This document shows positions 1 to 46,443 of a DNA stretch of 64,000 nt, in pieces; within the stretch, counting starts at the first letter, position 1, and the number at the start of each line of letters is the position of its first letter. The DNA is from Hyphomicrobiales bacterium. Its GTDB lineage: Bacteria > Pseudomonadota > Alphaproteobacteria > Rhizobiales > Aestuariivirgaceae. The position numbers were made by a program, and so were the translations under genes. Under the pieces are notes generated by a model, which was given only the letters and a program-made list of their open reading frames with translations, ran no database searches and was not told where the DNA came from. Location of the stretch: positions 1,204-65,203 of the forward strand of contig JANPCL010000110.1 in the NCBI GenBank assembly GCA_031430915.1, written 5' to 3'.

Positions 1-990
1 GTGCAACACGTGACAGCCGACGTTGTTATAAATGCAAGTGGTGCATGGATCGACAAGGTCAATGAAAACCTCGGTATCATCTCCAGTTATATGGGGGGTT
101 CGAGGGGCGGCCATCTCATCGTGAAGCATAAGGGCCTGTTGCAGGCCACGCAGGGCCGCATGATGTATTTTGGCTGCAAGGATGGACGCTTCAACCTACT
201 CTATCCGTTTTTTGGCAATGTACTGGTGGGCTCCACCGACCTTGCCCAGCAGGACCCGGACCTTGCCCATTGCAGTGCGGAGGAAACGGACTACCTCCTA
301 TCCGTCGTCAGCGAAATCTTCCCGGATATCAAGCTCACACGCGACGACGTGATTCTGACTTACAGCGGTGTGCGGCCCCTGCCTCGCGCAAATGGCAAGG
401 ACATTGGCGATGTCTCGCGAGACCACAGCATTGGCCGAGACAGTTTGCCCGGCACCAATGACCCTGTATTGTCTCTCATCGGCGGAAAATGGACAACCTT
501 CCGCGCTTTCTCAGAACAATCCTGTGATGCCGTGTTGCAACTGCTCGGCAGGCCGCGTTCAGTTTCAACTGTGGATATGCCAATCGGCGGCGGGCGCAAC
601 TATCCTCGTGATGAAGTTAGCCGAAATGCCATGATCGGCAGACTTGGGACACGCGGCGATACCTTGCTGAACCGCTATGGCACGAAAGCAGTTGCCGTCC
701 AGGCTTTCGCTGACACAACACAAGACAAGCCCATGTCATCACTGCCCGGATACAACACAGGCGAAGTCGCTTATATCTGCGCCCATGAAAACGTCCGGCA
801 TCTGGCAGACTTGGTGTTGCGCCGCACGGCTATTGCCATGGAAGGCCTACTGACGCCGGAAGTCATTTTAGAGACATCAAAGATCGCAGCCAACATTCTG
901 GGGTGGAATAAAGCCCGCACGAACGCCGAGGTCGCATATGCTCAAGCTGAACTCGCCAAACGCAGCGTGAAAAACGTCAGGCCCGCGTAA
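1..990 (+). CDS. FAD-dependent glycerol-3-phosphate dehydrogenase family protein, C-terminal ~330 aa (5' end outside window)
   Basis: The frame is open from base 1. The translation (VINASGAW, SGVRPL, long C-terminal helical part) resembles GlpD/EryB-type oxidoreductases. It converges on the next gene with a 14-nt overlap. Confidence 0.7.
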   Translation: MQHVTADVVINASGAWIDKVNENLGIISSYMGGSRGGHLIVKHKGLLQATQGRMMYFGCKDGRFNLLYPFFGNVLVGSTDLAQQDPDLAHCSAEETDYLLSVVSEIFPDIKLTRDDVILTYSGVRPLPRANGKDIGDVSRDHSIGRDSLPGTNDPVLSLIGGKWTTFRAFSEQSCDAVLQLLGRPRSVSTVDMPIGGGRNYPRDEVSRNAMIGRLGTRGDTLLNRYGTKAVAVQAFADTTQDKPMSSLPGYNTGEVAYICAHENVRHLADLVLRRTAIAMEGLLTPEVILETSKIAANILGWNKARTNAEVAYAQAELAKRSVKNVRPA

Positions 991-1684
991 GCGCTTCTGA
1001 AACTGTTTCCATCAAAACTTCTTTCACTTCGGCAAAGGTGAGCGACGGAAGCAGATCGGCAATCGCGCCATAGGTCGTTGAATCAAAGTTGAGCCCCATG
1101 GCACGGTAAGCATCAGCAATTCCCACACAAGCTTTCTCCGAGCGCGTAACTGAAACAATTGCCCCCATTTGCAGGCAGCGCTGGTTCATGCGTTGCGCAA
1201 CGCCGACAAGCTTGATGCGCCCTTCCGCGTTGACGCTGAATTTCCCGGGGCAATATTCATTCGGCAACTCGCCCACACGCGCGTCAATGCCGAGTGTCTT
1301 CAAGCCATCAGCAATCGCACCGGAAAGTATGTTGTATCGCGCCAGCATGTATTGATGTGGCGCTGGATGGGGGGCGATGATGGTAATGCCAAGCGCATTT
1401 TCATCAAACAGCGTGAGCCTGCCGCCTGTGCCACGTTCAACGGGTTCATAACCACTTGACCTGACGTGTTCCTTGATGCGTTCGTAGTCCGCATGTGTTG
1501 TATCCTGCGGTGAAAAGGCAGCCGTGGGCCATGGGCGGCGAAAACGCAGAATGGCTTGGTCTCCCGCTCTCAACTCCGTGAGCTGCTGCTTCACCCATGC
1601 AGCATAGTCCTGCGGGTGTGGACGTTCGACGGCGGGCAATTCCGTATCATCGATGATCTGGAAAGGCCCGCCAAACGCTTGCAT
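977..1684 (-). CDS. Lipoate/octanoate-protein ligase-like protein (BPL/LplA/LipB fold)
   Basis: 235-aa ORF. ERGTGGRLTLFD and GKFSV...GRIKLVGVAQR resemble the LplA/LipB motifs RxxGGGAVxHD and GRKISGSAQR. Its start shares 1 nt with the aldolase stop. Confidence 0.55.
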   Translation of the reverse strand: MQAFGGPFQIIDDTELPAVERPHPQDYAAWVKQQLTELRAGDQAILRFRRPWPTAAFSPQDTTHADYERIKEHVRSSGYEPVERGTGGRLTLFDENALGITIIAPHPAPHQYMLARYNILSGAIADGLKTLGIDARVGELPNEYCPGKFSVNAEGRIKLVGVAQRMNQRCLQMGAIVSVTRSEKACVGIADAYRAMGLNFDSTTYGAIADLLPSLTFAEVKEVLMETVSEALTRA

Positions 1685-2535
1685 CAGGCTGCCTTGGCTT
1701 TGCCCGCACAGCCGTAAAGTTCCATCTTCTCTATGGTGGCATTGATCATGCGCTTGCGACCTTCGGCCATGGCCTCTTCAAGCTGATGATCACCCTTGGA
1801 CCACACATCCAACATGCCCTGGCGGAACACGTGGCGCAGGTCAGTATCGGCATTGAACTTGTGGACACCTGCGGCCTTCGCAGCCTGCACTTCTTCAACG
1901 GGTATGCCGGACGCGCCGTGCAATACCAAAGGAATTTTCGTGGCGTCACGAATTTCAAGCGTGCGTTTTATTGAAAGGGGCTCAGGCTTCAAGCCGGGAA
2001 TGACGCCATGCACAATGCCAACGGAAATTGCGAGATAATCCACGCCAGTTTCGGTCACAAAGCGCGTCGCCTCTTCGACTGTTGTATAATAATCTTCCCA
2101 GTTTACGCTTTCGCCAACATCGGGAATCTTGCCAAGTTCTGCTTCAACAGGAATGCCGAAATCATGGGCGATCTCGACGATGCGCTTGGTCATGCGGATG
2201 TTTTCTTCAAACGGCATGTGCGCAAAATCACACATGATGGAATTGAAACCAAGCTTGATGGCCTCAATGCACTCGTCCCAAGGACCATGATCGAGGTGGA
2301 TGACAAATTGCGCGTTGGATTCTTCGGCTATGCGCTTGGTCATTTCGAAGCCACGCTTCAAGCCGACATGAGGCACCAAAGCCCGACCCACTTGCAGGAT
2401 TACGGGTGAGTTGGCCTGTTCAGCGGCACGTACCAGTGCTTCGGTGGTTTCTTCATTGTGCATGTTGAACGCACCGACGGCATATTTGCCTTTGCGTGCG
2501 TCATCGATCAATTGTCGTGGATTGGCCCAAGGCAT
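1684..2535 (-). CDS. Class II ketose-bisphosphate aldolase (fructose/tagatose-1,6-bisphosphate aldolase family)
   Basis: 283-aa ORF with family-typical blocks: KGKYAVGAFN, VILQVG, HLDHG, LVLHGASG. Confidence 0.85.
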   Translation of the reverse strand: MPWANPRQLIDDARKGKYAVGAFNMHNEETTEALVRAAEQANSPVILQVGRALVPHVGLKRGFEMTKRIAEESNAQFVIHLDHGPWDECIEAIKLGFNSIMCDFAHMPFEENIRMTKRIVEIAHDFGIPVEAELGKIPDVGESVNWEDYYTTVEEATRFVTETGVDYLAISVGIVHGVIPGLKPEPLSIKRTLEIRDATKIPLVLHGASGIPVEEVQAAKAAGVHKFNADTDLRHVFRQGMLDVWSKGDHQLEEAMAEGRKRMINATIEKMELYGCAGKAKAA

Positions 2536-2558
2536 GTCAGTGTCCTTTGTTCAAATGT

Positions 2559-2801
2559 TCAGGAAATTTTGATGATGGCAATTGGGGTTCGCACTTCAAC
2601 TGTCTGATCCACATCAAACAAGATCTCGGTGAGAACACCCGCCGCAGGAGACTCCAGTGTCTCTGTCGCTTTTTCAGCTTCAATCTCGGCCAGCGGTTCG
2701 TCTTCGGCAACAGTATCGCCTACGGCTTTCAGCCATTTGACGATCTTGCCTTCACTCATGCCCATGCCCCATTGGGGTAGAAGAACTTTGATGTTTGGCA
2801 T
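2559..2801 (-). CDS. Stand-alone lipoyl-domain carrier protein (80 aa)
   Basis: A single biotin/lipoyl attachment domain with the lipoyl-lysine context EIEAEKATETLESPAAG. There is no E2 catalytic or E3-binding domain. It starts 2 nt after E1 beta. Confidence 0.8.
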   Translation of the reverse strand: MPNIKVLLPQWGMGMSEGKIVKWLKAVGDTVAEDEPLAEIEAEKATETLESPAAGVLTEILFDVDQTVEVRTPIAIIKIS

Positions 2802-2803
2802 TG

Positions 2804-3817
2804 TCAGTGTCCTTTCAGTTTTGAAGCGGTTACTTTGCGAACAGCATCCGCAATTTTTTCCGCATTCGGATAGAGTTGTTTCTCAAGTGCTGGGCTAAAA
2901 GGAATGTGCGTGTCCGGCGTGGTGACCCGCAGAATTGGTGCTTTCAAACTGTCGAAAATGGTTTCTGACACCAGTGCGGAAATCTCAGCCGCAGCACCGC
3001 AGGTTCTATTGGCGGGATCAGCGATCACGAGACGACCTGTTTTCGCAACCGATCTGAATATCGCGTCGTGATCAAGTGGCACCAATGTGCGGGGATCAAT
3101 GATTTCCACCGAAATGCCTTCAGCTTCGAGCTTTTGCGCCGCCAGAATGGACTGTTGCACGGCTGAAGAAATCGCAACGATGGTCACATCAGTGCCTTCG
3201 CGTACCGTGCGGGCCACGCCGAAGGGAATGCGGAACTCCCCATCCGGCACGTCCTCTTTCATGCCCCACAGCAAGCAAGCCTCGAACGACATAACGGGAT
3301 CATCCATATCAATGGCAGTGCGCAACAAGCCCTTGGCATCCGTAGGCGATGCAGGGACCATGATCTTCAGGCCCGGCATGTTCATGAACATGGGGTATGG
3401 TCGATCCGAGTGGTGGGCCGCCGTGCTCAAGCCGTAAAACATGGCGGATCGGAACACGACGGGGAGTGATGCTTGCCCCCCAAACATATAGCGGCTTTTG
3501 GCCACCTGATTGATAAATTGGTCCATCGCCATATAGAGGAAAGTTGAGTAGGACAAATCGACAATGGGACGAAGCCCCGTCATGGCCGCACCCGCCGCTG
3601 CCCCCACCATGACCTCTTCTGAGATTGGCGTATTGCGAATGCGATTAGGTCCAAACATCTGCAAGAAATCGCCTTTGTCGGCGCGGGACTTGCCGCCACC
3701 CATAGTGCCATAGACATTGGCTTCCACGTCTTCACCCATGATGATAACGCGGCTATCGGCTGCCATGGCCTCACGCTGTGCTTCGCCAATGGCACCGAGA
3801 TAACTTGTGATCGTCAT
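2804..3817 (-). CDS. Alpha-ketoacid/acetoin dehydrogenase E1 component, beta subunit
   Basis: 337-aa ORF with transketolase-like pyrimidine-binding and C-terminal domains (IIMGEDV, NTPISEE, VPASP). It overlaps E1 alpha by 4 nt. Confidence 0.9.
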   Translation of the reverse strand: MTITSYLGAIGEAQREAMAADSRVIIMGEDVEANVYGTMGGGKSRADKGDFLQMFGPNRIRNTPISEEVMVGAAAGAAMTGLRPIVDLSYSTFLYMAMDQFINQVAKSRYMFGGQASLPVVFRSAMFYGLSTAAHHSDRPYPMFMNMPGLKIMVPASPTDAKGLLRTAIDMDDPVMSFEACLLWGMKEDVPDGEFRIPFGVARTVREGTDVTIVAISSAVQQSILAAQKLEAEGISVEIIDPRTLVPLDHDAIFRSVAKTGRLVIADPANRTCGAAAEISALVSETIFDSLKAPILRVTTPDTHIPFSPALEKQLYPNAEKIADAVRKVTASKLKGH

Positions 3818-4800
3818 GCTGTTGCTCCAAGGGCTTCGGTGTAAATGTCTTTGAAAGCAACAGAGAGTTCCGGATATGGGCTCTCGTTGGCAAAAGCGAC
3901 AGAAGCATCCACTTCCGCCATCACTTCCGCCTCAAGGCCCGCCAGAGTAGCTTCATCGGCAATGCCATTTTCCAGCATATGGGCACGGAATAATTTGATC
4001 GGATCACGCTTCAACCACGCGGCCTTCTGCTCGGCATCGCGATAGTCAACAGCCAGGCGCAGGCCCTCAGAGTGTTCATTGAAGCGATAAGTTACAACCT
4101 CAACGAAGCTTGGACCATTGCCTGCACGGGCACGGTCTACAGCCGTTTTCACAGCATCGTAGACTGTCAAAACACTTTGTCCGTCTTCAACCCGAACACC
4201 CGGCATGTCAAAGCCCGGTGCACGATCGGCCAATACTCCCGCCGTCACGGTATGAGCAGGTGTTGAAAGTGCATATTGATTGTTCTCGCAGAGGAAGACG
4301 ATTGGCAGTTTCCAAACTGACGAGAGGTTCATTGCCTCATAGAGACAGCCCTGATTTGCCGCACCATCGCCGAAGAAAGCCAGTGACACACGGCCATTGC
4401 CCAAGACTTTGCTCGATAAAGCTGCGCCCGTTGCAATGGGAATAGAGGAACCCACGATGCCGGACTCTCCCAAGCTTCCCACTTTGAAATCGGCCAAATG
4501 CATGGAGCCGCCTTTGCCGCCGCACACACCCCAGGCCTTGCCCACAAGTTCCGCCATCAAAGGCCCCAGTGCGGCCCCCTTGCCAATGGGGTGACCATGG
4601 CTACGGTGATTGCCCGTCATATAGTCACCGTCACCCAGCGCCATGGTGGCACCAACAACCTGCGCCTCTTGCCCAATCGATGTGTGCACGGTACCCGGAA
4701 TTTCACCGCGCTTCACCATTTTTGACGCGCGTTCATCAAAATAACGGATGCGCAACATGCGCCGCTGCATCTCGAGCAGCATGTCATTTTTAACGGTCAT
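3814..4800 (-). CDS. Thiamine-diphosphate-dependent dehydrogenase E1 component, alpha subunit (acetoin AcoA-like)
   Basis: 328-aa ORF. The TPP motif GDGAANQG...ENNQYA and the HTSIGQEA/HRSHGH blocks are typical of AcoA/PdhA-type E1 alpha. Confidence 0.9.
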   Translation of the reverse strand: MTVKNDMLLEMQRRMLRIRYFDERASKMVKRGEIPGTVHTSIGQEAQVVGATMALGDGDYMTGNHRSHGHPIGKGAALGPLMAELVGKAWGVCGGKGGSMHLADFKVGSLGESGIVGSSIPIATGAALSSKVLGNGRVSLAFFGDGAANQGCLYEAMNLSSVWKLPIVFLCENNQYALSTPAHTVTAGVLADRAPGFDMPGVRVEDGQSVLTVYDAVKTAVDRARAGNGPSFVEVVTYRFNEHSEGLRLAVDYRDAEQKAAWLKRDPIKLFRAHMLENGIADEATLAGLEAEVMAEVDASVAFANESPYPELSVAFKDIYTEALGATA

Positions 4801-5795
4801 GATTTATCTTTCGTGGCAGTGTTCATCAAATAATTTGCGCTGTTCACATCGGTAACCAGCACATCAATCCATTTTCCAGCAAGCGCTGCGGCAAGGGCCA
4901 CATGTTTGTCAGCACCGCCAGCGACAGCAATTCTGCGACCCGCATTGCGCAACTGTTCAAGCGTGATGCCGACGACCAATTGGTCCAGTTCGGTTTGCAA
5001 CGGCCGACCTTCAGCAGTTATAAACCTTTGGTGCAATTGCCCGACAGCACCAGCCTTGCGCACCTTGGCCAGTTGTTCAGCGGTGAAGAAATTATCACCT
5101 TCTTCCAGCGGGCCATGGAAATCTGCAGGGCCGAGGCCAACAAAAGCGATATCGACTTTGTCCAATAGTCGAAGAGCTGTCTGGACGTGCACATCAGACA
5201 TTGCCACCTTGAGAAGCTCAGCATTTGGCATTACGCCGGGTGTGCGCAAAAACACTGCTTCGGCATCAAATGCTTTTGCCATCTGCAACGTTGCGAGTGC
5301 TGCTTCATGCTGCAACATGGGGGAGCCCAGATCGCCCAACATCTCGACCACTTTTTTTATACCCGTATTGGATCGGGGCAACATGGCGCGGGCCATTTCA
5401 CGCAACGTCCTGCTCCAGGATGTCAGCCCTACAACCGGGCCATTCCTGAATTCGCTGACGAGACATTGTGCAGCGGCAGTTCCAAGAACGTGGGCGACCC
5501 CAGCTTCACTTGAACTGATGTCAACAACATAGACAGCCTCAAGCCCAAAGGCTTCTGCCAATCCCTCTTCAAGATCGGGGTATAGCCCTTCTGGGGGCAC
5601 CACAACGGTGCGCACAATGCCATGCTCCTCGGCAAGCGTAAGAAAGCGCGAGACGCTGGCTTGCGAAATGCCGAGTTTCTCTGCAATTTCAGACTGGCGT
5701 TGGCCTTGCGTGTGATGGAGCCGCGCCACTTTGGTAATCAGCCGCATTTGTTCAACGTCGAGTCGCAACACACTTCTGGTGGCTTGCTTCTTCAT
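4797..5795 (-). CDS. SorC/DeoR-family sugar-binding transcriptional regulator
   Basis: 332-aa ORF. It has an N-terminal HTH (QSEIAEKLGISQASVSRFL) and a SorC-type sugar-phosphate-binding domain. It lies inside the operon with 4-nt overlaps on both sides. Confidence 0.85.
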   Translation of the reverse strand: MKKQATRSVLRLDVEQMRLITKVARLHHTQGQRQSEIAEKLGISQASVSRFLTLAEEHGIVRTVVVPPEGLYPDLEEGLAEAFGLEAVYVVDISSSEAGVAHVLGTAAAQCLVSEFRNGPVVGLTSWSRTLREMARAMLPRSNTGIKKVVEMLGDLGSPMLQHEAALATLQMAKAFDAEAVFLRTPGVMPNAELLKVAMSDVHVQTALRLLDKVDIAFVGLGPADFHGPLEEGDNFFTAEQLAKVRKAGAVGQLHQRFITAEGRPLQTELDQLVVGITLEQLRNAGRRIAVAGGADKHVALAAALAGKWIDVLVTDVNSANYLMNTATKDKS

Positions 5796-7303
5796 GGCAT
5801 CTTCTCCGCCATCAAACGGAACGTGTTTTTCAAGCCGGGATAGATGCTGCGATAGGCTTCGAAGATATCGGCATATCGCGCATGTGACGCTGCATCGGGT
5901 TCATAGATTATATCTGTGCCTGTCATGGCATCGGCGGCAGTGCGAATGTCCTTGTGCAGACCAACTGCGGCAGCCGCATGAATGCCCGCACCCAAAGCTG
6001 TGCTTTCCTGTTCGCGTACGCGTTTTGCGGACCGCCCCAACACATTGGCCATCATCTGACACAGCAACGCACTACGCGAACCACCTCCGAGTAACACAAT
6101 TTCATCAATAGTGCGGCCCGTTGCTGCTTCCACTCCTGTGGTCAGCAACCGCTGTTCCAGCGTCAGCGCTTCCAGCATGGCGCGATACATATGGGCCTTG
6201 CTGTGCAATCCGGAAAGTCCGACGTAGGCGCCCCGCGCATGACCATCCCAATAGGGTGTCATGGCACCCGTCCAATAGGGAAGGCACAGCAATTTTTCCG
6301 AGCCCTCCGGAATGTTTGCAGCCATGGCCTCCAACAGTTGCTCTGGCGTTTCACCTGGTTTTAGACGCGTGGCGTCCATGTTTGAAATCTGTTCGACGAA
6401 CCAGACGATGTTCTGCGTGCCGCCACCAATGAAGGTTTCAAGTATATAGGTTCCTGGCACTGGTCCGCCCATGGTGCGATAGGCTTTGGCGTGGCTGTAA
6501 GAGTCAGCGTAGACACCAGACACTGTGCCCGTGCCAATGTTGAGATAGGCCCTTCCGGGGCGCGTCACGTTGCAGCCAAGCCCAGCCGACTGACCATCAC
6601 CAGCGCCAACCACCACAGGTAAATTTATTGGCAATCCCAGTTCCACTGCAACCGCTGCCGTCAACCCGCCAGCGATAGCACCAGGTGGCAACAATCGGCT
6701 GACTTTGCTGCGGTCCAAACCCGCAATCTCCAGCAAACCGTCATCGTAATCACAGTGCTGCAAATCCACCAAGCCAAGCGGATCGGCACAGGCCCATGAT
6801 GTAGCCCACTCACCGGTCAACCGCTGCGCCAGGTAACCGGCAACATCGACAACGTGTTTCGTGCGGGCAATGGTGCCAAGCTCATGTTTCTTCAGCCACA
6901 GCAATTTATACCAGGCAGGCGTTGGGTTTGGTGGCTTGCCTGTGATGCGGTGAACTTCATCACTGCCAAACTCTTCAACCTCCGCCGTGGCCCGAATGTC
7001 CATCCAGGTTATTGCAGGACGAATGGGCTTTGCATTCTCATCCAGACAAACAAATGTTTCGCGTTGGTGCGTGATGGCAATGGCCGCTATGCGGTCGCCT
7101 CCCACTTTCGAAACAGCGTCTGCAATGGCAGCAGATGTTGCACTCCACCAATCCGGCGCATGTTGCTCTACCCAGCCGGAGCGGACATGATCGGTTTCAT
7201 AATTGCGACGACCCGTTGCAATAGCCTTGCCTGACGCGTCCCACACCACGGCTTTGCTGGCGGTCGTCGAACAATCCACCCCGATAACGAGATCTCGGCT
7301 CAT
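5792..7303 (-). CDS. FGGY-family carbohydrate kinase (xylulokinase/glycerol-kinase-like)
   Basis: 503-aa ORF with an N-terminal DxGTT-like block (GVDCSTTASK) and the C-terminal GGGSRS motif. Confidence 0.85.
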   Translation of the reverse strand: MSRDLVIGVDCSTTASKAVVWDASGKAIATGRRNYETDHVRSGWVEQHAPDWWSATSAAIADAVSKVGGDRIAAIAITHQRETFVCLDENAKPIRPAITWMDIRATAEVEEFGSDEVHRITGKPPNPTPAWYKLLWLKKHELGTIARTKHVVDVAGYLAQRLTGEWATSWACADPLGLVDLQHCDYDDGLLEIAGLDRSKVSRLLPPGAIAGGLTAAVAVELGLPINLPVVVGAGDGQSAGLGCNVTRPGRAYLNIGTGTVSGVYADSYSHAKAYRTMGGPVPGTYILETFIGGGTQNIVWFVEQISNMDATRLKPGETPEQLLEAMAANIPEGSEKLLCLPYWTGAMTPYWDGHARGAYVGLSGLHSKAHMYRAMLEALTLEQRLLTTGVEAATGRTIDEIVLLGGGSRSALLCQMMANVLGRSAKRVREQESTALGAGIHAAAAVGLHKDIRTAADAMTGTDIIYEPDAASHARYADIFEAYRSIYPGLKNTFRLMAEKMP

Positions 7304-8706
7304 GTCATGACCCAGTCCACCAAATCATCGGTCCACAGGCCCATGAGGTCGAGGAGATCGACAAGATTGAAACGGTTGCGCATCACGAAACAATTGGCCA
7401 CCGCCCAGCGGGCAAGTTCGGGCGTGATCGACGGGTTCAGTTCCGCGAATGTTGAAGGCGCACCAGACGCCTCCAAAGCCGGGCGCAAATTCTCAGGTGG
7501 TTGCACCATCTTGCTGAACTCTGTGCAATGGTGTTTCCAGTTTTCAACAACGGAAACAAACATTGTCCAATTCTGTTCAATCAGCGCCTGCTTCTTCCTG
7601 CAATCGCTTAAACATTCGTCCACAATACCAGAGTCGAAGTGGCCGAAGGCCTTGCATACCCGCGCCTCCAACCTCGCCGCATCTGGTTTTCTCAAAAGCG
7701 CAGGCTGGACCAAGTCACCATCAATCGCCCGCAGCCATAACTTGGTGGCCACAAGTGTTGCCACACCAACTTGTGCGCCATGCAAACCAATGGCTTGGTG
7801 GTGGGCTGCGTGATGCAGATCGAGCATATGGCTGATCACATGTTCAACACCTGACAGGCAGGCCGTAGTATTGGAAACACCAGACACAATGCCGCGAAGC
7901 GCCAGAAGCTTCGTCAATTCAGCTATGGCCGTTGCATCGCCTGTCGCCACTCCGCTGGCCCAAGTTGGGGGTTCAGCAGCAGCGGCTTTCAGCAGCTCCA
8001 TCGAAGCCGGATGAAAAGTGTTGTCGAGGCCGACCAGATTGGCCAGGTACCAATCGGCAGGTGCCGTAAAAAGTGAAATCGCTTCGCCGAAACCCGAGGT
8101 GTTCAGTTCGCGTGGCGCTGCACCAATCGTTGTCGTATCGGCGAGAACGATTGTGGGCCAGCGTGACGGCACTGTGCGTTTGACTCCACTCCGCAAAATC
8201 ACAGACACGTTGTCGGTGAAGCCATCAACCGATGCCGCTGTTTGCACCACAATTTGCGGGATTCCGCCATTGCGCGTTCCTGCCACCTTGCCAACATCTG
8301 TCATGGTGCCGGAACCTATGGTGACAATGAGATCAGCACCCAACGCCGCCGCAGACGCTGCATCCAGTGTTGCCTCATCGGCGTGCAGCGTTGCGTGGTC
8401 AGCATGGAGTGCAACCGTTTTCAGCGCGTAACCGTCAAGCTGTGCTTGCACGAGCGAGCTGAGTTTTTGATTGCCGCGCATGATTGCCGACGGGTCAGTG
8501 AGGAGCACAACCGACGCTGGTTTTGCCTTCCCTACAGAAGCCAAAGCTTCTGCGGCAGCCTCTCCCAACTTCAAATGCGCATCACCCGAAATCTCTACCC
8601 GCAGCATCTCAATCGGCAGGAGTCGCGATTCTTTGTCTTCCGCTTTCAAAAAGCGGCGCAGACCGGCAAGGTCAGTTGGATCAGACAATGAATGCGTGAA
8701 TGCCAT
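7300..8706 (-). CDS. Iron-containing alcohol dehydrogenase family, sn-glycerol-1-phosphate dehydrogenase (AraM/EgsA)-like
   Basis: 468-aa ORF. The GSGTMTDVGK and QTAASVDGF blocks match the G1PDH-type Fe-ADH fold. It is longer than typical family members. Confidence 0.7.
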   Translation of the reverse strand: MAFTHSLSDPTDLAGLRRFLKAEDKESRLLPIEMLRVEISGDAHLKLGEAAAEALASVGKAKPASVVLLTDPSAIMRGNQKLSSLVQAQLDGYALKTVALHADHATLHADEATLDAASAAALGADLIVTIGSGTMTDVGKVAGTRNGGIPQIVVQTAASVDGFTDNVSVILRSGVKRTVPSRWPTIVLADTTTIGAAPRELNTSGFGEAISLFTAPADWYLANLVGLDNTFHPASMELLKAAAAEPPTWASGVATGDATAIAELTKLLALRGIVSGVSNTTACLSGVEHVISHMLDLHHAAHHQAIGLHGAQVGVATLVATKLWLRAIDGDLVQPALLRKPDAARLEARVCKAFGHFDSGIVDECLSDCRKKQALIEQNWTMFVSVVENWKHHCTEFSKMVQPPENLRPALEASGAPSTFAELNPSITPELARWAVANCFVMRNRFNLVDLLDLMGLWTDDLVDWVMT

Positions 8707-8750
8707 GATACCTCAGGGGTGACTGGCATGTTTATACACTATCAGAATTT

Positions 8751-10307
8751 TTATGCAAGGCCTGTTTGACACAAGCCCTGCCAAATCGGACGCATGGCTT
8801 TGCGAGCCGCCATGAATTGCGGGAAAATCCTGTCATAACACCCACTCAGATGGCCCTCTGGAGAAGTTGATGTGCCAAGGTGTGGGTCAACCCATGCCCT
8901 TGCACAGGCCACCATATCGGGGAAAACGCCTTGCTGCACCGCCGCTATCATGGCGGTTCCTGCTGCTCCCGCCTCTTCCCTGGAGACACTGCGGATTTCC
9001 GCGTGGAGAACACTTGCCAATATCAACCGCAGAGCCTTGGACCTTGCGGCACCACCCGTAAGTCTGATCTCCTTCGGAACTGACCCCATCGCGGCGTAAC
9101 AATCACGCGCAGCAAATGCGAGGCCTTCAAACACGCTGCGCATCATGTCGTAATAATGAGTAGTGGTATCAAGCCCATTGAACATGGCGCGCGCCGCCGT
9201 ATCCATGAACGGTCCACGTTCGCCCGCCCGCGAGATATAGGGATGATAGAGCAGTTTGGCGGGTGCGCGGGCCAGTATTTTATCATCAAGCCCTTTGAGC
9301 AAATCGTCGCGAGTTTTTTTCACGCCACTGTCAGCCAGGATGCCAATCGCAACATCCAGCAACCAATCAATATTCAATGTGGCAGCCATGTTGGATTGCA
9401 TCTGCGAAACCATGCCCGGTACGGGGAAAACAATTGTGAAGCCGGACTTTTCGGCGTTGAGTTGCACCGCGTTTGCATCGGTACGCAATCGCATATGCAT
9501 TCCGGTTGAACCAACGATCGTGCAACCCGATTGACCTGTGGGATCAAACAATCCGCCACCCAGACCTGTGCAAACCACGTCGATGAACCCTAGGCAAACA
9601 GGTGTGCCCGCTTTCAAACCTGCCAGCTTTGCGGCATCAGCCGAAAGGCTGCCGCAATTGATTGTGCCATCAACAACAGGCGTCAAAAGTTTCGTGGCAT
9701 CGCCAACTCTCAAATCATCCAGAATGTCTGGTTGATAGGTACGCGTCTTGTAGTTGCCAAAAGTGAAATTGGCTTCCGATGGATCGGTCACGCGGTCGCC
9801 TGTGAGTTTAAAGTAGATCCAGTCCTTGCAATGAAACGCGTGGGTGGCCTTCGCCAGAACATCGGGGCGATGGCGCTTCATCCATGCCAGTTTGCCACTC
9901 ATCTGGACCACGGTTAACCCCGTGCCAGTTCGTTCGTAGTGAGCTGCGTAGTTTTGTGTGCCTACATAATCTTCGACTATTGTTGCGGCACGATTGTCCA
10001 GCCAGATCGTGGCGGGGCCAACAGGCTCTCCCTCCCTGTCGATCAACCACATGCCATCCCCTTGCGCCGTCACAGAAATGGCAATCACGCGAGACGCTAG
10101 ATCAGGAATGATTTCACCGAGTTGCCTGAGAGTGGTTGCCGCATCAGCCCAGGTGCGGTTCATATCCTGTTCAACCGCGCCGTCGGGAAAAGTGACGTAG
10201 TCATTGGGAATGGCTGCAACGGCCAACTGCCTGCCATCACATGTAAAGGCCACAGACTTCAGCACCGAAGTACCGGCATCAATACCGATAATTATTCCGT
10301 CGTTCAT
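8751..10307 (-). CDS. FGGY-family carbohydrate kinase (second paralogue)
   Basis: 518-aa ORF with GIDAGTSVLK at the N-terminus and TGGAARS near the C-terminus. It is the first gene of the operon. Confidence 0.85.
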   Translation of the reverse strand: MNDGIIIGIDAGTSVLKSVAFTCDGRQLAVAAIPNDYVTFPDGAVEQDMNRTWADAATTLRQLGEIIPDLASRVIAISVTAQGDGMWLIDREGEPVGPATIWLDNRAATIVEDYVGTQNYAAHYERTGTGLTVVQMSGKLAWMKRHRPDVLAKATHAFHCKDWIYFKLTGDRVTDPSEANFTFGNYKTRTYQPDILDDLRVGDATKLLTPVVDGTINCGSLSADAAKLAGLKAGTPVCLGFIDVVCTGLGGGLFDPTGQSGCTIVGSTGMHMRLRTDANAVQLNAEKSGFTIVFPVPGMVSQMQSNMAATLNIDWLLDVAIGILADSGVKKTRDDLLKGLDDKILARAPAKLLYHPYISRAGERGPFMDTAARAMFNGLDTTTHYYDMMRSVFEGLAFAARDCYAAMGSVPKEIRLTGGAARSKALRLILASVLHAEIRSVSREEAGAAGTAMIAAVQQGVFPDMVACARAWVDPHLGTSTSPEGHLSGCYDRIFPQFMAARKAMRPIWQGLCQTGLA

Positions 10308-10563
10308 GGTTAAACACTCGCCTTGCTTGCCATTCTATGCGCCCCACATCGAAGAACGCAAATCGCATGACGTCAAGAGCGTTTAGAGTTGCTTCAGTAC
10401 AAGAGTTGATACAGCCCCGATTTGAGACTTAGCTCTGCCAGGTTAAATTCTCTATCATTGCGCAAGTAGCGCACACGACGTGACCTTGCCCTCGCGCTCA
10501 ATAAGTATGGCTATGTTGCATCCTGGCAGACTTTGAGTTGGCTCATCCGCTGGCTGCCAGTAA

Positions 10564-10884
10564 TTAACAGACTTTGCGAGGCTTCCCCGACCGACCGGTC
10601 TTTGGGCAGTCTAACAGGCCTATGCAAGTGAGACTGGGCTCATTCCTGAAGGCCTTACGGTTGCGGGCGTGATCATCGGTGTCACCAACCAAAACGTTAA
10701 ACAACGTCAGCCTGAAATGTTCTTCAAGCATTTGTTTGGGTTCCGTGAAGCGATGGCGGATCAAGGTTGAAAGGTCTTCATCGCTCGCATAACGCGCTTC
10801 CAGATCATTCAGCTCAAACATCGTCAACCATGACACAATTGCTTGGCGTGGCTTGCTGTAAAATAAATGTGCGCTTCCACCCAT
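10564..10884 (-). pseudogene. HipA-family kinase toxin remnant
   Basis: The 106-aa ORF carries the HipA catalytic-loop signature (FNVLVGDTDDHARN) but lacks most of the roughly 440-aa protein. A GGARPKA-like stretch (AGRFKAG) lies just upstream behind a stop codon. Confidence 0.5.
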
Positions 10885-22155: not shown

Positions 22156-24645
22156 CTACTGGCGCAATGGCTTTGCAATCTTGAAAAAATCTCTCCAAGG
22201 ATTGGGTTCTCTCAGGATATTGCGCGTCAGATCGCCGCTGATTGTGAATGACTTTGGATGCATTCCTGTCTCCATCAATTGCCAGTCGATAGGCATGGAT
22301 ATGGCAGCCTCATCATTGGCGCGTAGTGAGAAAGGTGCCACAGTGGTTGAGCCGCGGCCGTTGCGCAGATAGTCAATGAAGACTCTGCCCTTTCGGGCTT
22401 TTTTAGCAAGGGTTGCGGTGTAACGGTCTGGCGATGATTGTGTGAGAGCGTGCGCGAAATCATGCGCGAAGGTTTTGACTTCGTCCCACCCAGCCTTGGG
22501 TTTCAGCGGAACCACAACGTGAAACCCCTTGCCACCTGATGTTTTGAGCAATGCCGGAAGGCCAAGATCGCTCAAGTGTTGTTTGACATCTAGGGCAGCG
22601 GCCTTCACCAAGTCAATGTCCAATCCTTCATCAGGGTCGAGATCAAACACGATTTGATCCGGTGTTTCGAGTGCAGTTATTGTGGAGCCCCAAATATGAA
22701 TTTCGACCACACCCAATTGCACCAGTGCTGCCACACCGTCAAAGTTCTTTACATAAAGGTGTTGCTGCTTGTCTTCGGGATCGTCCAATGTGAAAATGGC
22801 GGGATGCATGCCGGGCGAGGCGTGTTTCTGATAAAACTGTTGGCCGCCAATACCGTCGGGTGCCCGCAAAAGACTCAAAGGCCGGTTGATGATAAATGGC
22901 TCCATGCGCGGCCAAACCGATCCGTAGTAGTCAAGCAAATCTTGTTTTGAGATTTTGGCTTTCGGCCAGAGCAATTTACCCACATTGCTAAGTTGCACGC
23001 TAGTGTCGGGCATGGGCAGTCGCTTAGGCTTTTTCTGTATCACCGTCGTTTTTTTCCGTGATGATGCGACTGGAACTTCCTTGACAACGTCATCTGCTGG
23101 CTTGTCTTCACGCAAGCCCTGAAACGAAGCTTGGCGCAAAATTCCTCCATCTGTCCAAGCCCGAAACTCCACTTCAGCCACGAATTCTGGCCTGACCCAC
23201 ACCGCAGTCTTCTCAACGCCGTCCATTCCTCTAATGGCTGGAGCTTTGGTCTTGAGTTTGTCAAGCCGACGTTTGATGTCGTCGCTACTTTTCACTGAAA
23301 AGCCGGTGCCAACCCGCCCACCATATTTGAGTTTGCCGTTATCATGATAGGCCACCAGAATTGAGCGCAGGCCGCGTCCCGTTGCTGCGGACGTGAGGTA
23401 GCCGATGACGACAAATTCCTGACGCTGGATGCATTTTGATTTGATCCAATCCAATGTGCGTCCACTGTGATACGGAGCGTCAACGCGTTTTGAGATCACG
23501 CCTTCAAGGCCCATGCGGCAAGCATGCGACAGCATCACCTCTCCTGTTTCAGCAAAGTCTTCGCTGTAGCGCACAACCGCGTGTTCAGGCTGCCGACTTA
23601 ATAGTTCCTCGAGACGCAATTTGCGTTTTGCCAGCGGTTTGCCAAGCCATGAAGAATTGTTCAGTTGTAGGAGGTCGAAGGCGTAGAACACCATCCTGTC
23701 ACTGCGGCCCTCCGAAAGATCGGCCTGCAGCAGTGAGAAGGAGGCAACGCCCTTTGGCGAAAGCACCACCAGTTCCCCGTCAATGATGGCTTGTTTGCAG
23801 TCGAGGCTCAGAAGTTCGCGCGGCACTGCATCACCAAAACGCGTCGTCCAATCGAGCCCTGATCGTGTCAGCAGTTTCACTTTCCCCGCTGCGACGTGGG
23901 CCTGAATGCGGTAACCGTCAAACTTGACCTCATGAATCCAGTCGTTGCCGGAAGGAGGAGTAGCTTTCAGCGTGGCAAGTGCTGGCGAGATGAACTGCGA
24001 AGATGGGGCAACCCTCGACTTCGGGGACACTCCCGCGGTCTTAGCGATAGCCTTGGAGCTTTTGCCAGCTCTGATATCGTCGATGGTAAGGCCAGACTTT
24101 ACCGATTGTTGTGCCGCCTCCAGAATGTCCGCACTCGCGGTGGCGAATTCATCCTCGGCCTTGATCAGCAACCAGTTGTCGTGTTTTTCCTTTGCACGGG
24201 GTTTCAAACGCACCAAATGCCAGCCACCTCCGAGTTTCTCTCCAGCAAGTGCAAAACTGAGATGGCCCTTCTTCATGCTCGCGACAGCATCACCGTCCGG
24301 TGCCCACGTTCCACGGTCCCAAACGATCGCTGCGCCAGCACCATAAGAGCCTTTCGGGATTGTGCCTTCAAAATCTGCATAATCAAGCGGATGGTCTTCG
24401 ACATGGACAGCGAGCCGTTTGTCGGTAGGATCAAGGCTTGGTCCGCGGGTGACAGCCCAGCACCACAGCACACCGTCATGCTCCAGACGCAAATCATAAT
24501 GTAGCCGGCGGGCATCGTGCTTATGGATGACGAACAGACCTCCGGTAGACTTGGATTTTCGCGATCCACCAAGTGCTTTTCCAGAAGGTTCGCTGGTCTT
24601 CTTGAAATCCCGCTTCAACCGGTAATGCTTTAACCCAGTCGACAT
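22156..24645 (-). CDS. ligD: Multidomain ATP-dependent DNA ligase D (phosphoesterase-ligase-polymerase order)
   Basis: 829 aa. The N-terminal PE domain has FVIHKHDARRLHYDLRLE, the central ligase has the KxDG motif (EVKFDGYR), and the C-terminus is a primase-polymerase domain. Confidence 0.9.
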   Translation of the reverse strand: MSTGLKHYRLKRDFKKTSEPSGKALGGSRKSKSTGGLFVIHKHDARRLHYDLRLEHDGVLWCWAVTRGPSLDPTDKRLAVHVEDHPLDYADFEGTIPKGSYGAGAAIVWDRGTWAPDGDAVASMKKGHLSFALAGEKLGGGWHLVRLKPRAKEKHDNWLLIKAEDEFATASADILEAAQQSVKSGLTIDDIRAGKSSKAIAKTAGVSPKSRVAPSSQFISPALATLKATPPSGNDWIHEVKFDGYRIQAHVAAGKVKLLTRSGLDWTTRFGDAVPRELLSLDCKQAIIDGELVVLSPKGVASFSLLQADLSEGRSDRMVFYAFDLLQLNNSSWLGKPLAKRKLRLEELLSRQPEHAVVRYSEDFAETGEVMLSHACRMGLEGVISKRVDAPYHSGRTLDWIKSKCIQRQEFVVIGYLTSAATGRGLRSILVAYHDNGKLKYGGRVGTGFSVKSSDDIKRRLDKLKTKAPAIRGMDGVEKTAVWVRPEFVAEVEFRAWTDGGILRQASFQGLREDKPADDVVKEVPVASSRKKTTVIQKKPKRLPMPDTSVQLSNVGKLLWPKAKISKQDLLDYYGSVWPRMEPFIINRPLSLLRAPDGIGGQQFYQKHASPGMHPAIFTLDDPEDKQQHLYVKNFDGVAALVQLGVVEIHIWGSTITALETPDQIVFDLDPDEGLDIDLVKAAALDVKQHLSDLGLPALLKTSGGKGFHVVVPLKPKAGWDEVKTFAHDFAHALTQSSPDRYTATLAKKARKGRVFIDYLRNGRGSTTVAPFSLRANDEAAISMPIDWQLMETGMHPKSFTISGDLTRNILREPNPWRDFFKIAKPLRQ

Positions 24646-24661
24646 TCAAGCACCCCGAAGC

Positions 24662-25797: not shown

Positions 25798-25822
25798 AAC
25801 GAACGTGACTGACGAAGGTTCC
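25798..25822 (-). promoter_or_regulatory. EcfG-type general-stress promoter (perfect GGAAC-N16-CGTT)
   Basis: Sense strand GGAAC-cttcgtcagtcacgtt-CGTT, directly upstream of the small-ORF/ku/ligD operon. Confidence 0.6.
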
Positions 25823-25827
25823 TTTCA

Positions 25828-25852
25828 GGAACCATCAAGCCTTGAGTCAGTT
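25828..25852 (+). promoter_or_regulatory. EcfG-like promoter, near match (GGAAC-N16-AGTT)
   Basis: GGAAC-catcaagccttgagtc-AGTT, ending 33 nt before ATG 25886. Its -35 forms an inverted repeat (GGTTCC-tttca-GGAACC) with the divergent promoter. Confidence 0.35.
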
Positions 25853-25885
25853 GTAATACTACGACTAAAAATCGGAGTTCCAGCA

Positions 25886-46279: not shown

Positions 46280-46443
46280 ATAGACCTTCAAAGTCCCAAA
46301 ACTTCTGTGAAAAAAGCTGTTTCCTGATGGGATATCGCCATTACACCCTTTTCCAGATTTTAATGCATCAAATCGCCAGTTCACACCCCTGTCCAGGCTT
46401 TGCGATAGCTTGCAGCAGCACTTTTTAGACTTGGCAGGTCTGG

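Follow-up and report, generated by a model that had tools for sequence, protein, structure and literature searches.

A widely conserved bacterial gene cluster links an acetoin-type E1 and a free-standing lipoyl protein to putative small-polyol catabolism

The 64,000-nt stretch of DNA analysed here (the window) contains nine minus-strand genes that belong to a cluster widely conserved across bacteria yet undescribed. On the basis of the orthologous clusters, the ThDP and lipoyl proteins of this cluster are identified as a dehydrogenase complex in which E2 is divided between a free lipoyl protein and a lipoyl-less catalytic core. The nine genes are best explained as one operon within an island devoted to the breakdown of a small polyol or ketose, an explanation to which we give about an even chance. 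The cluster points to an uncharacterised route by which a small sugar phosphate would be split to yield acyl-CoA and an aldehyde.

The genes at 977-10307 are intact and tightly coupled, and their coordinates and order agree exactly with the earlier note on this DNA. ATGA overlaps were found at four junctions (7300-7303, 5792-5795, 4797-4800 and 3814-3817), and the remaining junctions consist of gaps of 44, 2 and 23 nt and a 1-nt TGATG overlap. Pfam and NCBIfam searches confirmed the domain identities of the operon genes (Table 1). The GlpD-like gene, described before as convergent on the last operon gene, overlaps it by 14 nt. The only sizeable non-coding gap heading the nine-gene run is a 256-nt leader; a consensus promoter scan of this leader gave nothing above chance and it had no Rfam match.

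Table 1. Features of the operon and its borders in the window.
Feature	Position	Strand	Evidence
Leader upstream of K1, 256 nt, presumed promoter/operator	10308..10563	.	inference only
K1, FGGY polyol kinase, EryA-like	8751..10307	-	FGGY_N + FGGY_C
NAD(P)-dependent Fe-ADH_2 dehydrogenase (ADH), G1PDH-like, 468 aa	7300..8706	-	PF13685, 75 bits
K2, FGGY kinase	5792..7303	-	FGGY_N + FGGY_C
SorC/DeoR-type sugar-phosphate-sensing regulator	4797..5795	-	PF04198 Sugar-bind + N-terminal HTH
ThDP-dependent E1alpha, AcoA/PdhA type	3814..4800	-	PF00676, 256 bits
E1beta	2804..3817	-	Transket_pyr + Transketolase_C
Lip80, free-standing lipoyl carrier, 80 aa	2559..2801	-	PF00364, 70.5 bits; EAEK, Lys44 (predicted site)
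Class II (metal-dependent) ketose-bisphosphate-type aldolase	1684..2535	-	PF01116, 277 bits
LipL/LipM-like octanoyl/lipoyl transferase (predicted), 235 aa, Cys145-Lys dyad	977..1684	-	PF21948 (LplA-B_cat), 44 bits
GlpD-like FAD dehydrogenase, C-terminal 329 aa; start lies outside window	1..990	+	DAO + DAO_C

The conservation of the cluster was investigated with 80 genome loci fetched with E1alpha and with metagenome contigs fetched with the ADH. Sixty-four loci were informative, 43 of them actinobacterial; 21 loci were of the window's type (including Rhodobacter L062). The same gene set, comprising E1alpha-E1beta-Lip80, the aldolase, the G1PDH-like ADH, FGGY kinases, the SorC regulator, the GlpD-like dehydrogenase and a lipoylation gene, recurs in Hyphomicrobiales, Rhodobacterales and many Actinomycetota, and its recurrence in the fetched loci is far beyond chance. 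E1alpha-E1beta-Lip is invariant among the cluster loci, and the aldolase, the ADH-K2 pair, SorC, the GlpD-like gene, a kinase and the lipoylation gene nearly always lie within 10 kb. K2 directly follows the ADH in 55 of the 64 informative loci and the SorC gene is conserved beside E1alpha. E1alpha is 74-98% identical across Hyphomicrobiales and Actinomycetota; the E1alpha of the window is 74-81% identical to the actinobacterial ones. In the reverse test, with the ADH as query, all homologues of at least 45% identity on long-enough contigs adjoined E1alpha/beta-Lip. The neighbourhood comparison proposed in the earlier note revealed a gene set conserved across two phyla and flanked by CUT2 ABC transporters, which in L001-L004 follow the GlpD-like gene. 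As the E1 and Lip genes form the most conserved core of the cluster, they are not a recent insertion, a possibility that the note had raised. Two minimal clusters (L068 and L050) consist of no more than a kinase, E1alpha/beta, Lip, the E2 core, a lipoyl transferase and an ABC transporter, which suggests that a kinase alone may feed the E1 step. No published description of this gene set was found in a literature search, in line with the view that the pathway is not a described one.

E1alpha and E1beta were closest to pyruvate dehydrogenase (PDH) models in NCBIfam, yet both remained under the PDH equivalog cut-offs (E1alpha, 315.7 against 393.85 for TIGR03182; E1beta, 292.8 against 321 for NF006667). 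The E1 is of the AcoA/PdhA type, in support of its previous description as acetoin-type, and relatives of E1alpha are mostly named acetoin:DCPIP oxidoreductase alpha by JGI. E1alpha has the ThDP motif GDG...NN, and His136 of E1beta aligns with the catalytic H128beta of the Geobacillus stearothermophilus E1p. This His is conserved whether the substrate is an alpha-hydroxyketone or a 2-oxoacid and is thus no residue-level discriminator. Among solved structures, PDH and BCKDH E1s are the nearest. The best NCBIfam match of Lip80 was the AcoC lipoyl domain (NF011457). Throughout an alignment of 17 loci the protein is 80 aa long and keeps the motif VLLPQWGMGMSEG...EAEK, apart from an occasional single substitution; lipoylation is predicted at Lys44 of EAEK. 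The notion that Lip80 is a truncated acoC was rejected, as the protein is complete and conserved and the aldolase gene lies only 23 nt away.

Pfam found neither PF00198 (E2 core) nor dihydrolipoyl dehydrogenase among the ORFs of at least 200 aa picked from the window, and a tblastn search of the window with actinobacterial E2 cores and an E. coli Lpd sequence returned no E2 or E3. The earlier observation that both are absent from the 64 kb was thereby reproduced, but its extension to a system working without E2 is not supported by the orthologous clusters. A stand-alone, lipoyl-less E2 catalytic domain directly follows the aldolase gene in all 43 informative actinobacterial loci and in the alphaproteobacteria Shinella and Thetidibacter, and such a core is also encoded in L084. 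These cores have about 225-240 aa, match PF00198 at 219 bits with an intact DHRAxDG motif, have a PDH component as best NCBIfam match and belong to a large family, in which the best 120 of 6132 matches are all 218-241 aa long. The E2 core is followed by a true E3 in L059 (TIGR01350, 489 bits against a cut-off of 409) and by a tblastn match to E3 in L074, while E3 is not present in 62 of the 64 informative loci. These stand-alone cores, two of them with an E3, argue for a dehydrogenase complex with a split E2. In the lineage of the window no E2 core was found within 10 kb (0 of 21 loci), and it is only here that the HAD-IIA phosphatase gene is missing along with it. Since the orthologous clusters encode the core, its absence from the window is lineage-specific.

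The 235-aa protein, previously taken for a private lipoate ligase, is instead assigned to the LipL/LipM-type Cys-Lys transferases. It had weak NCBIfam matches to LipL families and 2p0l as best PDB match. Orthologues from alphaproteobacteria and actinobacteria largely retain the motif EYCPG..S.N....K..G.AQR, with no change in its Cys and Lys. The transferase is presumably dedicated to Lip80; the lipoylation gene of the cluster is LipL-like, or LipA in some lineages. Of the overall interpretation in the earlier note, the gene content, gene order, E1 type and free lipoyl protein are thus retained, and the E2-less mode of working and the ligase are not.

K1 reached no NCBIfam equivalog cut-off. 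Over 510 aa it shares 52% identity with the kinase that occupies the eryA position in the Sinorhizobium meliloti erythritol/adonitol/L-arabitol locus, which exceeds the EryA identity cut-off of 46% (PMC3599248). The best match of K2 was XylB (264 bits against a cut-off of 380), and Fe-ADH_2 scored 101 bits against the G1PDH model NF002022 (cut-off 413), its best solved relative being the G1PDH 9h4x (89.6 bits). The aldolase passed the TIGR00167 ketose-bisphosphate aldolase subfamily cut-off (224.7 against 215.6) and none of the NCBIfam equivalog cut-offs for FBA and TBP. The operon holds two different C-C cleavage enzymes, the aldolase and E1. The full-length GlpD-like orthologue in L001 scored 240 bits against the GlpD cut-off of 360.

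The gene content, domains, conservation, catalytic motifs and split E2 of the orthologues are best accommodated by catabolism of a small polyol via phospho-ketoses, which the aldolase and the ThDP/lipoyl system would cleave to acyl-CoA. We regard this reading as having an equal chance of being right or wrong, and the substrate class and step order given here are what we infer. The imported compound would be turned into phosphorylated 2-ketoses by EryA-like K1, by K2 and by two dehydrogenases, the FAD-dependent GlpD-like and the NAD(P)-dependent G1PDH-like enzymes, for which the functions of their families suggest opposite stereospecificity. The class II aldolase may convert a ketose phosphate into DHAP and an aldehyde. 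The AcoAB-like E1alpha/beta may break the C-C bond beside the keto group; the distal part would leave as an aldehyde or aldehyde phosphate, and the acyl part, most likely acetyl or glycolyl, would be reductively loaded onto lipoyl-Lys44 of Lip80, an unusual carrier probably lipoylated by the 235-aa transferase. In the commonest and putatively ancestral form of the cluster, the stand-alone E2 domain would pass the acyl group to CoA and E3 would then re-oxidise the lipoyl group. With the E2 core and the HAD-IIA phosphatase missing from the window's lineage, acyl transfer and re-oxidation would there have to come in trans, possibly from the housekeeping PDH/OGDH E2 and E3 or from an AcoC-type E2. 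Precedents for ThDP/lipoyl/E2 systems acting on ketose phosphates are QncN/L/M and SclQ1-4 (PMC6335953).

The complex could also be an ordinary 2-oxoacid dehydrogenase (for pyruvate, perhaps hydroxypyruvate) that is merely co-regulated and oxidises the pyruvate formed after the sugar genes have yielded triose phosphates. The PDH-component matches of E1alpha, E1beta and the E2 core, the PDH/BCKDH structures nearest to E1 and the conserved catalytic His are consistent with this, as are a GlpK-like kinase (NF000756, 541-564 bits, above the subfamily cut-off of 498) and a GlpD near threshold in the actinobacterial clusters. However, all PDH equivalog cut-offs were missed, the JGI names and Lip80 point to acetoin systems, and aerobes of this kind already possess a housekeeping PDH. 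The E1 genes are moreover interleaved with aldolase, GlpD-like and kinase genes in one operon, and in the minimal clusters they are accompanied just by a kinase and a transporter, so that we consider this reading unlikely. Still less likely is a non-oxidative, phosphoketolase-like reaction, in which a 1-phospho-2-ketose is cut at C2-C3, loss of the beta-phosphate from the ThDP enamine leaves acetyl-ThDP, and the acetyl group passes to reduced dihydrolipoyl-Lip80 and on to CoA. Such a reaction has no net redox and would not need E3 stoichiometrically, in keeping with the 62 loci without E3. Both dehydrogenase families of the cluster oxidise the carbon beside a phosphorylated CH2OH, and a 1-phospho-2-ketose is the product type of either. 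As to chemical precedent, Flournoy and Frey are said to have found in 1986 that PDH E1 turns 3-fluoropyruvate into acetyl-ThDP and acetylates dihydrolipoamide, and Xsc and phosphoketolase share the same elimination logic. The proposal nevertheless has no sequence signature, complexes that share a housekeeping E3 commonly have no E3 gene in their cluster, and E3 is encoded beside the E2 core in two loci.

That the window's system is truly E2-less, with the acyl group parked on the free carrier and removed by hydrolysis or by another operon enzyme, appears very unlikely. The 21 loci of its type, Rhodobacter L062 included, would fit, as would a Sphingobium plasmid with E1alpha/beta, a free Lip and no annotated E2 in the 19-kb stretch fetched around E1alpha. 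Against it stand the high identity of the window's E1alpha to the actinobacterial ones, whose informative loci all encode an E2 core, and an AcoC-type E2 located 2.8 kb upstream in one close relative. In addition, the E2-less clusters have no conserved neighbour gene for a thioesterase or another acyl acceptor; an alpha/beta-hydrolase gene adjoins L017 but is not conserved. A biosynthetic module that takes C2 (glycolyl) from a ketose phosphate and loads it onto a carrier in secondary metabolism would follow the same enzyme logic as QncN/L/M, in which a ThDP E1-like enzyme works with a lipoyl domain and E2 acyltransferase. It is highly improbable, as neither the window nor the fetched loci showed any ACP, NRPS or PKS gene and the genes nearby encode importers, kinases, an aldolase and a SorC regulator of catabolic type.

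Among known systems, the cluster resembles the acetoin dehydrogenase system (AcoA/AcoB/AcoC/AcoL) in its heterotetramer-type ThDP E1alpha/beta, in the lipoyl domain of Lip80, whose lipoylation motif is of the E-K-A type seen also in AcoC from L006, and in the expected conversion of an alpha-hydroxyketone into acyl-lipoyl and aldehyde. It differs in having neither an AcoC-type fused E2 nor AcoR, and E3 in two loci only. AcoC with its alpha/beta-hydrolase domain is replaced by the 80-aa Lip80, accompanied in most lineages by a separate PF00198 core, and the genes around encode sugar kinases, dehydrogenases for polyol phosphates, an aldolase and an ABC importer for sugars, in place of butanediol/acetoin genes. 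The PDH complex (PdhA/PdhB/PdhC/Lpd) provides the top HMM and structure matches of E1alpha, E1beta and the E2 core, and it shares with the cluster the ThDP motif, the catalytic His and DHRxxDG. Unlike in that complex, the cluster proteins score under the equivalog cut-offs, lack a peripheral-subunit-binding domain, have the lipoyl domain as a separate protein and are encoded inside a catabolic sugar operon. The 235-aa protein shares the PF21948 fold and the Cys-Lys acyl-enzyme transferase motif with the LipM/LipL relay of Bacillus and other Firmicutes, but it scores far below their cut-offs (37.5 against 400), and its gene lies in a catabolic operon beside its presumed private target, with LipA instead in some lineages.

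In the Lsr system (LsrACDB, LsrK, LsrR, LsrG, LsrF), which processes autoinducer-2, a phosphorylated small keto-sugar is converted to acetyl-CoA and a triose phosphate by the thiolase-type LsrF without ThDP or lipoate. Both systems combine CUT2 ABC import with an FGGY kinase and a repressor of the SorC family, but the kinase and regulator found here are far under the LsrK and LsrR cut-offs (NCBIfam). QncN/QncL/QncM and SclQ1-4 carry out C2 transfer from a ketose phosphate, not a 2-oxoacid, in tetrahydroisoquinoline and scleric acid biosynthesis (PMC6335953); the likeness is one of enzyme logic, and they deliver a glycolicacyl group to an ACP for an NRPS, whereas the present cluster has neither and a catabolic context. 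The ery loci of Brucella, Rhizobium and Sinorhizobium likewise encode an EryA-like kinase, a dehydrogenase of the GlpD family, a regulator of the SorC family and an ABC transporter for polyols. In contrast to these loci, the GlpD-like protein is merely 26-29% identical to S. meliloti EryB, and the isomerases EryC, TpiB and RpiB are replaced by the aldolase and the ThDP/lipoyl system, which suggests C-C cleavage rather than isomerisation to erythrose-4-phosphate.

The nine genes of the operon were all intact and matched the description in the earlier note exactly. Searches against Pfam and NCBIfam gave the order as an FGGY kinase (K1), a 468-aa Fe-ADH_2 dehydrogenase related to glycerol-1-phosphate dehydrogenase (ADH, G1PDH), a second FGGY kinase (K2), a SorC regulator, E1α, E1β, the free lipoyl protein Lip80, a class II aldolase and a 235-aa LplA-B_cat protein. 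Four junctions were ATGA overlaps, and the others consisted of one TGATG overlap and gaps of 44, 2 and 23 nt. A GlpD-like gene was convergent to the last gene and extended beyond the window edge. Pfam analysis of all non-overlapping ORFs of at least 200 aa in the whole 64 kb, and tblastn searches using the Lpd sequence of E. coli and E2 cores from Actinomycetota as queries, detected neither a 2-oxoacid_dh catalytic domain nor a dihydrolipoyl dehydrogenase (E3) in the window, which bore out the claim that E2 core and E3 are missing from it. Promoter/terminator and Rfam scans of window positions 1-14 kb gave no signal above chance. The remainder of the window was unrelated to the operon (Ku/LigD, hydrolases, cytochrome oxidase, catalase).

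Positions of features in the window and in related loci (L numbers)
Location	Feature	Remarks
Window 977-10307	Nine-gene operon	Minus strand
Window 7300-7303, 5792-5795, 4797-4800, 3814-3817	ATGA overlaps	
Window 10564-10884	106-aa ORF directly upstream of the operon leader	Matches the middle of the HipA C-terminal domain only; probably the remnant of a truncated toxin gene
Window 22156-25540	NHEJ pair	Ku and a multidomain LigD (phosphoesterase, ligase, primase-polymerase domains)
Window 25805-26710	α/β-hydrolase gene (one of three)	26% identical to L006 AcoC across the entire hydrolase domain, a generic similarity; located 21 kb away from the operon; no conservation in the vicinity of the cluster
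Window 29867-30763	α/β-hydrolase gene	
Window 40061-40882	α/β-hydrolase gene	
Window 41939-46606	1555-aa fusion	CheB methylesterase, CheR methyltransferase, several PAS domains, HWE histidine kinase
L006:148-1401	AcoC-type E2	Lipoyl, E3-binding and α/β-hydrolase domains; 2.8 kb upstream of K1
L050:155-1800 (Glaciibacter superstes)	Apparent split transketolase directly upstream of a minimal kinase/E1α/β/Lip/E2-core cluster	Transketolase_N ORF confirmed by Pfam; following stretch is a 29%-identity tblastn match to E1β only
L086:8986-13253 (Sphingobium sp. RAC03 plasmid pBSY17_1)	E1α, E1β, free 79-aa lipoyl protein (EVEAAKAT)	E1α 55% identical
L088:1540-12242 (Rhizobium sp. K1/93 plasmid)	E1α/E1β and full-length E2 adjoined by glucitol/sorbitol PTS, SorC-type regulator and 441-aa oxidoreductase	E1α 49% identical
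L089:4908-9807 (S. meliloti)	E1-less module with ADH homologue	

The best 120 protein-collection clusters matching E1α were 83-96% identical to it, many of them named acetoin:DCPIP oxidoreductase alpha by JGI, and with one genome per species at least 559 matches were confirmed. The best 80 matches included Hyphomicrobiales (Aestuariivirga and relatives) at 83-98% identity and, unexpectedly, also many Actinomycetota at 74-81% (Arthrobacter, Sinomonas, Nocardioides, Kocuria, Cryobacterium, Microbacteriaceae, Nakamurella and Geodermatophilus). In tblastn maps the E1α-E1β-Lip80 block was invariant across all fetched loci, and within 10 kb of it nearly all loci held, in variable order, the aldolase, the ADH-K2 pair, SorC, the GlpD-like gene next to an FGGY kinase gene, and the LplA-B_cat gene. 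Clustering of the ORFs of related loci yielded three more conserved families. One is a CUT2 sugar ABC transporter and another a HAD-IIA phosphatase; the third consists of a stand-alone, lipoyl-less PF00198 catalytic domain (E2 core). The search for a conserved gene set and its transporters that the earlier note had called for thus returned a set recurring in two phyla, with a conserved CUT2 transporter family.

As the original loci had been fetched with E1α, a reverse search was made on metagenome contigs with ADH as the query. On contigs long enough to judge, homologues of at least 45% identity adjoined E1α/β-Lip in every case, and those at 35-43% identity belonged to a separate triad of FGGY, ADH and HAD genes without E1. 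Together with the invariance of the E1α-E1β-Lip80 block in the locus maps, this result identifies the E1/lipoyl genes as the conserved core of the cluster and rules out their recent insertion. ADH homologues of 29-43% identity were also observed in E1-less modules in five metagenome loci (L127, L131, L148, L151 and L160) and in S. meliloti; in this recurrent module a HAD phosphatase accompanies the G1PDH-like dehydrogenase, an FGGY kinase is usually present as well, and a GlpD-like gene is often found with them.

The E1 domains PF00676, PF02779 and PF02780 were present in the window, as were the ThDP motif and the catalytic histidine; His136 of E1β aligned with H128β of the G. stearothermophilus enzyme. 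This histidine was dropped as a substrate discriminator, since it is conserved yet does not tell 2-oxoacid from hydroxyketone enzymes. The nearest NCBIfam models of E1α and E1β were those of pyruvate dehydrogenase, but every equivalog cut-off was missed (TIGR03182, 315.7 vs 393.85; NF006667, 292.8 vs 321; NF008854, 283.8 vs 454), and none of the cleavage-module proteins reached a curated equivalog, that is function-level, cut-off.

Across the 17 aligned loci Lip80 was 80 aa long and carried the signature VLLPQWGMGMSEG...EAEK, and the window agreed with these loci in the succession of E1α, E1β and a free lipoyl protein of about 80 aa with the PQWGMGMSEG...EAEK signature. Lys44 of the EAEK motif is the predicted lipoylation site. 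The nearest NCBIfam match was the AcoC lipoyl domain, and the E-K-A type motif recurred in the AcoC of L006 and in the free Lip protein of Sphingobium. A truncated acoC with a nearby pseudogene remainder was rejected as the origin of Lip80, because the 23-nt gap before the aldolase leaves no room for a remnant and the length of 80 aa is constant across the aligned loci.

The 235-aa protein matched LipL-type families weakly, with 2p0l as the best PDB match, and none of the LplA models in NCBIfam. It has a conserved Cys in YCPG (Cys145) and a downstream Lys in K..G.AQR, like the LipB/LipM/LipL acyl-enzyme transferases; judged from its sequence, it is not a recognisable ATP-dependent ligase. The Shinella and Thetidibacter clusters encode LipA in place of the LplA-B_cat gene, so that a private lipoylation function, provided by one gene or the other, is constant in the system. 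Of the private lipoate ligase suggested in the earlier note, a presumably dedicated lipoylation gene therefore stands, but the LipL-type matches and the Cys-Lys motif make a ligase the less likely identity.

In all 43 informative loci from Actinomycetota the E2 core lay directly after the aldolase, and it also occurred in other alphaproteobacteria (L081, L083 and L084; a Shinella plasmid, Thetidibacter halocola and a 5.7-Mb genome), which speaks against the proposal of a system that works without E2. It measured about 225-240 aa, matched PF00198 at 219 bits and kept the DHRAxDG motif, without lipoyl and subunit-binding domains; a search for the family gave 6132 matches, the best 120 of which were all 218-241 aa and contained PF00198 only. 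In L059 a true dihydrolipoyl dehydrogenase came next after the E2 core (TIGR01350, 489 bits vs a cut-off of 409), and L074 had a tblastn match to E3 at the same position. The presence of both the E2 core and Lip80 in orthologous clusters, with E3 in L059, points to a dehydrogenase-type complex in which two separate proteins, a lipoyl carrier and a catalytic core, make up E2. Apparent fusions of the E2 core to the aldolase were dismissed, as frame analysis identified them as alternative-frame ORF artefacts in high-GC loci.

The window shares its type with 21 loci, including one from Rhodobacter (L062), which like it all lack the E2 core in the cluster (no core within 10 kb). The HAD-IIA phosphatase was jointly missing from all 21, and in 20 of them the LplA-B_cat gene occupied the would-be E2-core position. 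HAD-IIA was also kept in 29 of the 43 informative actinobacterial loci, all of which keep the E2 core. The AcoC-type E2 of L006, a MAG whose E1α is 94% identical to that of the window, might serve the E2-less variant as an acyltransferase acting in trans. A 'split AcoC', with a stand-alone α/β-hydrolase replacing the E2 core, was rejected: the hydrolase beside L017 showed no conservation, and it resembled the AcoC domain only in a generic way (24-31%).

K1 shared 52% identity with the kinase that occupies the eryA position in the erythritol/adonitol/L-arabitol locus of S. meliloti, an assignment judged by gene position, and thereby exceeded the 46% cut-off for EryA homologues (PMC3599248). The GlpD-like protein was 26-29% identical to EryB, below the 65% EryB criterion, and no EryC, TpiB or RpiB isomerase genes were found in the cluster. 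The actinobacterial kinase beside the GlpD-like gene was GlpK-like (541-564 bits, above the subfamily and below the equivalog cut-off). ADH scored 101 bits against the G1PDH equivalog NF002022 (cut-off 413) and was related to the G1PDH 9h4x (89.6 bits) but about 100 aa longer. The aldolase passed the TIGR00167 ketose-bisphosphate aldolase subfamily cut-off (224.7 vs 215.6) and reached neither the FBA nor the tagatose-bisphosphate equivalog cut-offs in NCBIfam. The solute-binding proteins of the cluster were generically ribose-binding-protein-like; the M. smegmatis CUT2 proteins 4rs3, 4rsm and 5hko, PDB entries with polyol ligands, matched no better than ribose binders, and no ligand can be inferred from them.

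Taken together, the importer, the kinases, the two dehydrogenase families and a regulator of the sugar-phosphate type argue for catabolism of a small polyol or ketose via phosphorylated 2-ketoses, with cleavage by the aldolase and by E1/lipoyl and an acyl-CoA product (acetyl and glycolyl being the candidate acyl groups), a general model to which we give an even chance. Dehydrogenases of the GlpD (FAD) and G1PDH (NAD(P)) families, of opposite stereochemistry in their type reactions, would oxidise the carbon adjacent to a phosphorylated CH2OH. Two C-C cleaving activities, a DHAP-type aldolase and an AcoAB-like E1, would follow. By analogy with acetoin dehydrogenase, E1 would cut beside the keto group and pass the acyl half to lipoyl-Lip80, the E2 core would make the acyl-CoA, and the carrier would be re-oxidised by E3. 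The minimal clusters L068 and L050, which contain only a GlpK-like kinase, SorC, E1α/β, Lip, the E2 core, the lipoyl transferase and the ABC transporter, suggest that one phosphorylation may be enough to make, or dispose of, the E1 substrate or product. The proximity of E1 to pyruvate dehydrogenase models would also fit an ordinary complex of the pyruvate type whose regulation is shared with the use of polyols or glycerol; considering the missed cut-offs as well, we regard this as rather unlikely.

A non-oxidative, phosphoketolase-like variant, in which the β-phosphate of a 1-phospho-2-ketose would be eliminated to give acetyl-ThDP and dihydrolipoyl-Lip80 would be a pure acyl carrier, is drawn by analogy and appears improbable. 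The cluster would then be a lipoate-dependent counterpart of phosphoketolase, itself a doubtful proposition, with E1 acting on a 1-phospho-2-ketose derived from a polyol (for example erythrulose 1-phosphate from erythritol). Phosphate would be expelled from the ThDP enamine, the acetyl group of the resulting acetyl-ThDP would be handed by the free dihydrolipoyl protein and the split E2 core directly to CoA, and a DHAP-dependent aldolase would recapture the aldehyde half. There would be no net redox change and no need for E3. If true, sugar alcohols would be turned into acetyl-CoA by a new route that conserves carbon, and the lipoyl arm would have a catalytic role new to it. The truly E2-less system of the earlier note agrees with the 21 loci of the window's type; beside the E2 cores of the actinobacterial, Shinella and Thetidibacter clusters it seems highly improbable. 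The QncN/L/M and SclQ1-4 proteins are a biosynthetic precedent for a ThDP/lipoyl/E2 system acting on ketose phosphates (PMC6335953); that the present cluster is a biosynthetic C2 donor, with its importer and kinases, is scarcely credible.

Full-text literature on the cluster's enzymes and candidate substrates yielded precedents only and no published description of the cluster, in line with the earlier remark that the pathway was not recognised as a described one. Every part comes from a known family, and the system is therefore not categorically new. Three aspects appear to be undescribed in the searchable literature: the architecture of a free lipoyl protein, a lipoyl-less E2 core and a private lipoyl transferase or LipA; the fusion of this split-E2 architecture with polyol-phosphate metabolism; and the two-phylum distribution at 74-98% E1α identity (best 80 matches). 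If our reading is right, carbohydrate catabolism has taken over the machinery of the 2-oxoacid/acetoin dehydrogenases, with a split E2 and a dedicated lipoylation enzyme. The cluster is carried by more than 550 species-representative genomes, including Hyphomicrobiales and Actinomycetota that are abundant in freshwater, glacier streams and soil. Hundreds of 'PDH/acetoin E1' and 'E2' annotations, probably wrong at present, would receive functions once it is solved, and it would become clear how small polyols such as erythritol are converted into acyl-CoA. The cluster could also yield parts for engineered C2/C4-to-acetyl-CoA routes, for which engineered phosphoketolases are used today, and the split E2 would be a simple system in which to study lipoyl-domain recognition.

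Related E1 modules were observed in other surroundings. On the Sphingobium plasmid (L086) the neighbours of E1α/β-Lip were a PQQ-dependent dehydrogenase, SDRs and a cupin protein, with no sugar genes and no annotated E2 in the 19-kb stretch fetched; the free-lipoyl-carrier module thus occurs in other metabolic settings too. The Rhizobium plasmid (L088) provides a second sugar-alcohol setting for an AcoA-like E1 and hints at sugar-phosphate-cleaving E1s as a wider theme.

Among characterized systems, LplA has an LplA-type catalytic domain and an accessory C-terminal domain; the cluster protein is 235 aa long, and its best matches are of the LipL type. Compared with eryABCD-tpiB-rpiB, K1 exceeds the identity cut-off for EryA, but the GlpD-like protein stays below that for EryB and the isomerases are missing. 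PdhABC-Lpd encodes an E2 with lipoyl, PSBD and catalytic domains and an E3 alongside E1, none of which lies within the window's 64 kb, and both cluster E1 subunits miss the PDH cut-offs. With AcoABCL the window cluster shares the ThDP E1 α and β subunits; the window has no fused AcoC, with its lipoyl, E3-binding and acyltransferase domains, but only the 80-aa lipoyl protein. The gene context of AcoABCL is acetoin/butanediol, whereas the cluster's genes lie among those for sugar kinases, a polyol transporter and an aldolase.
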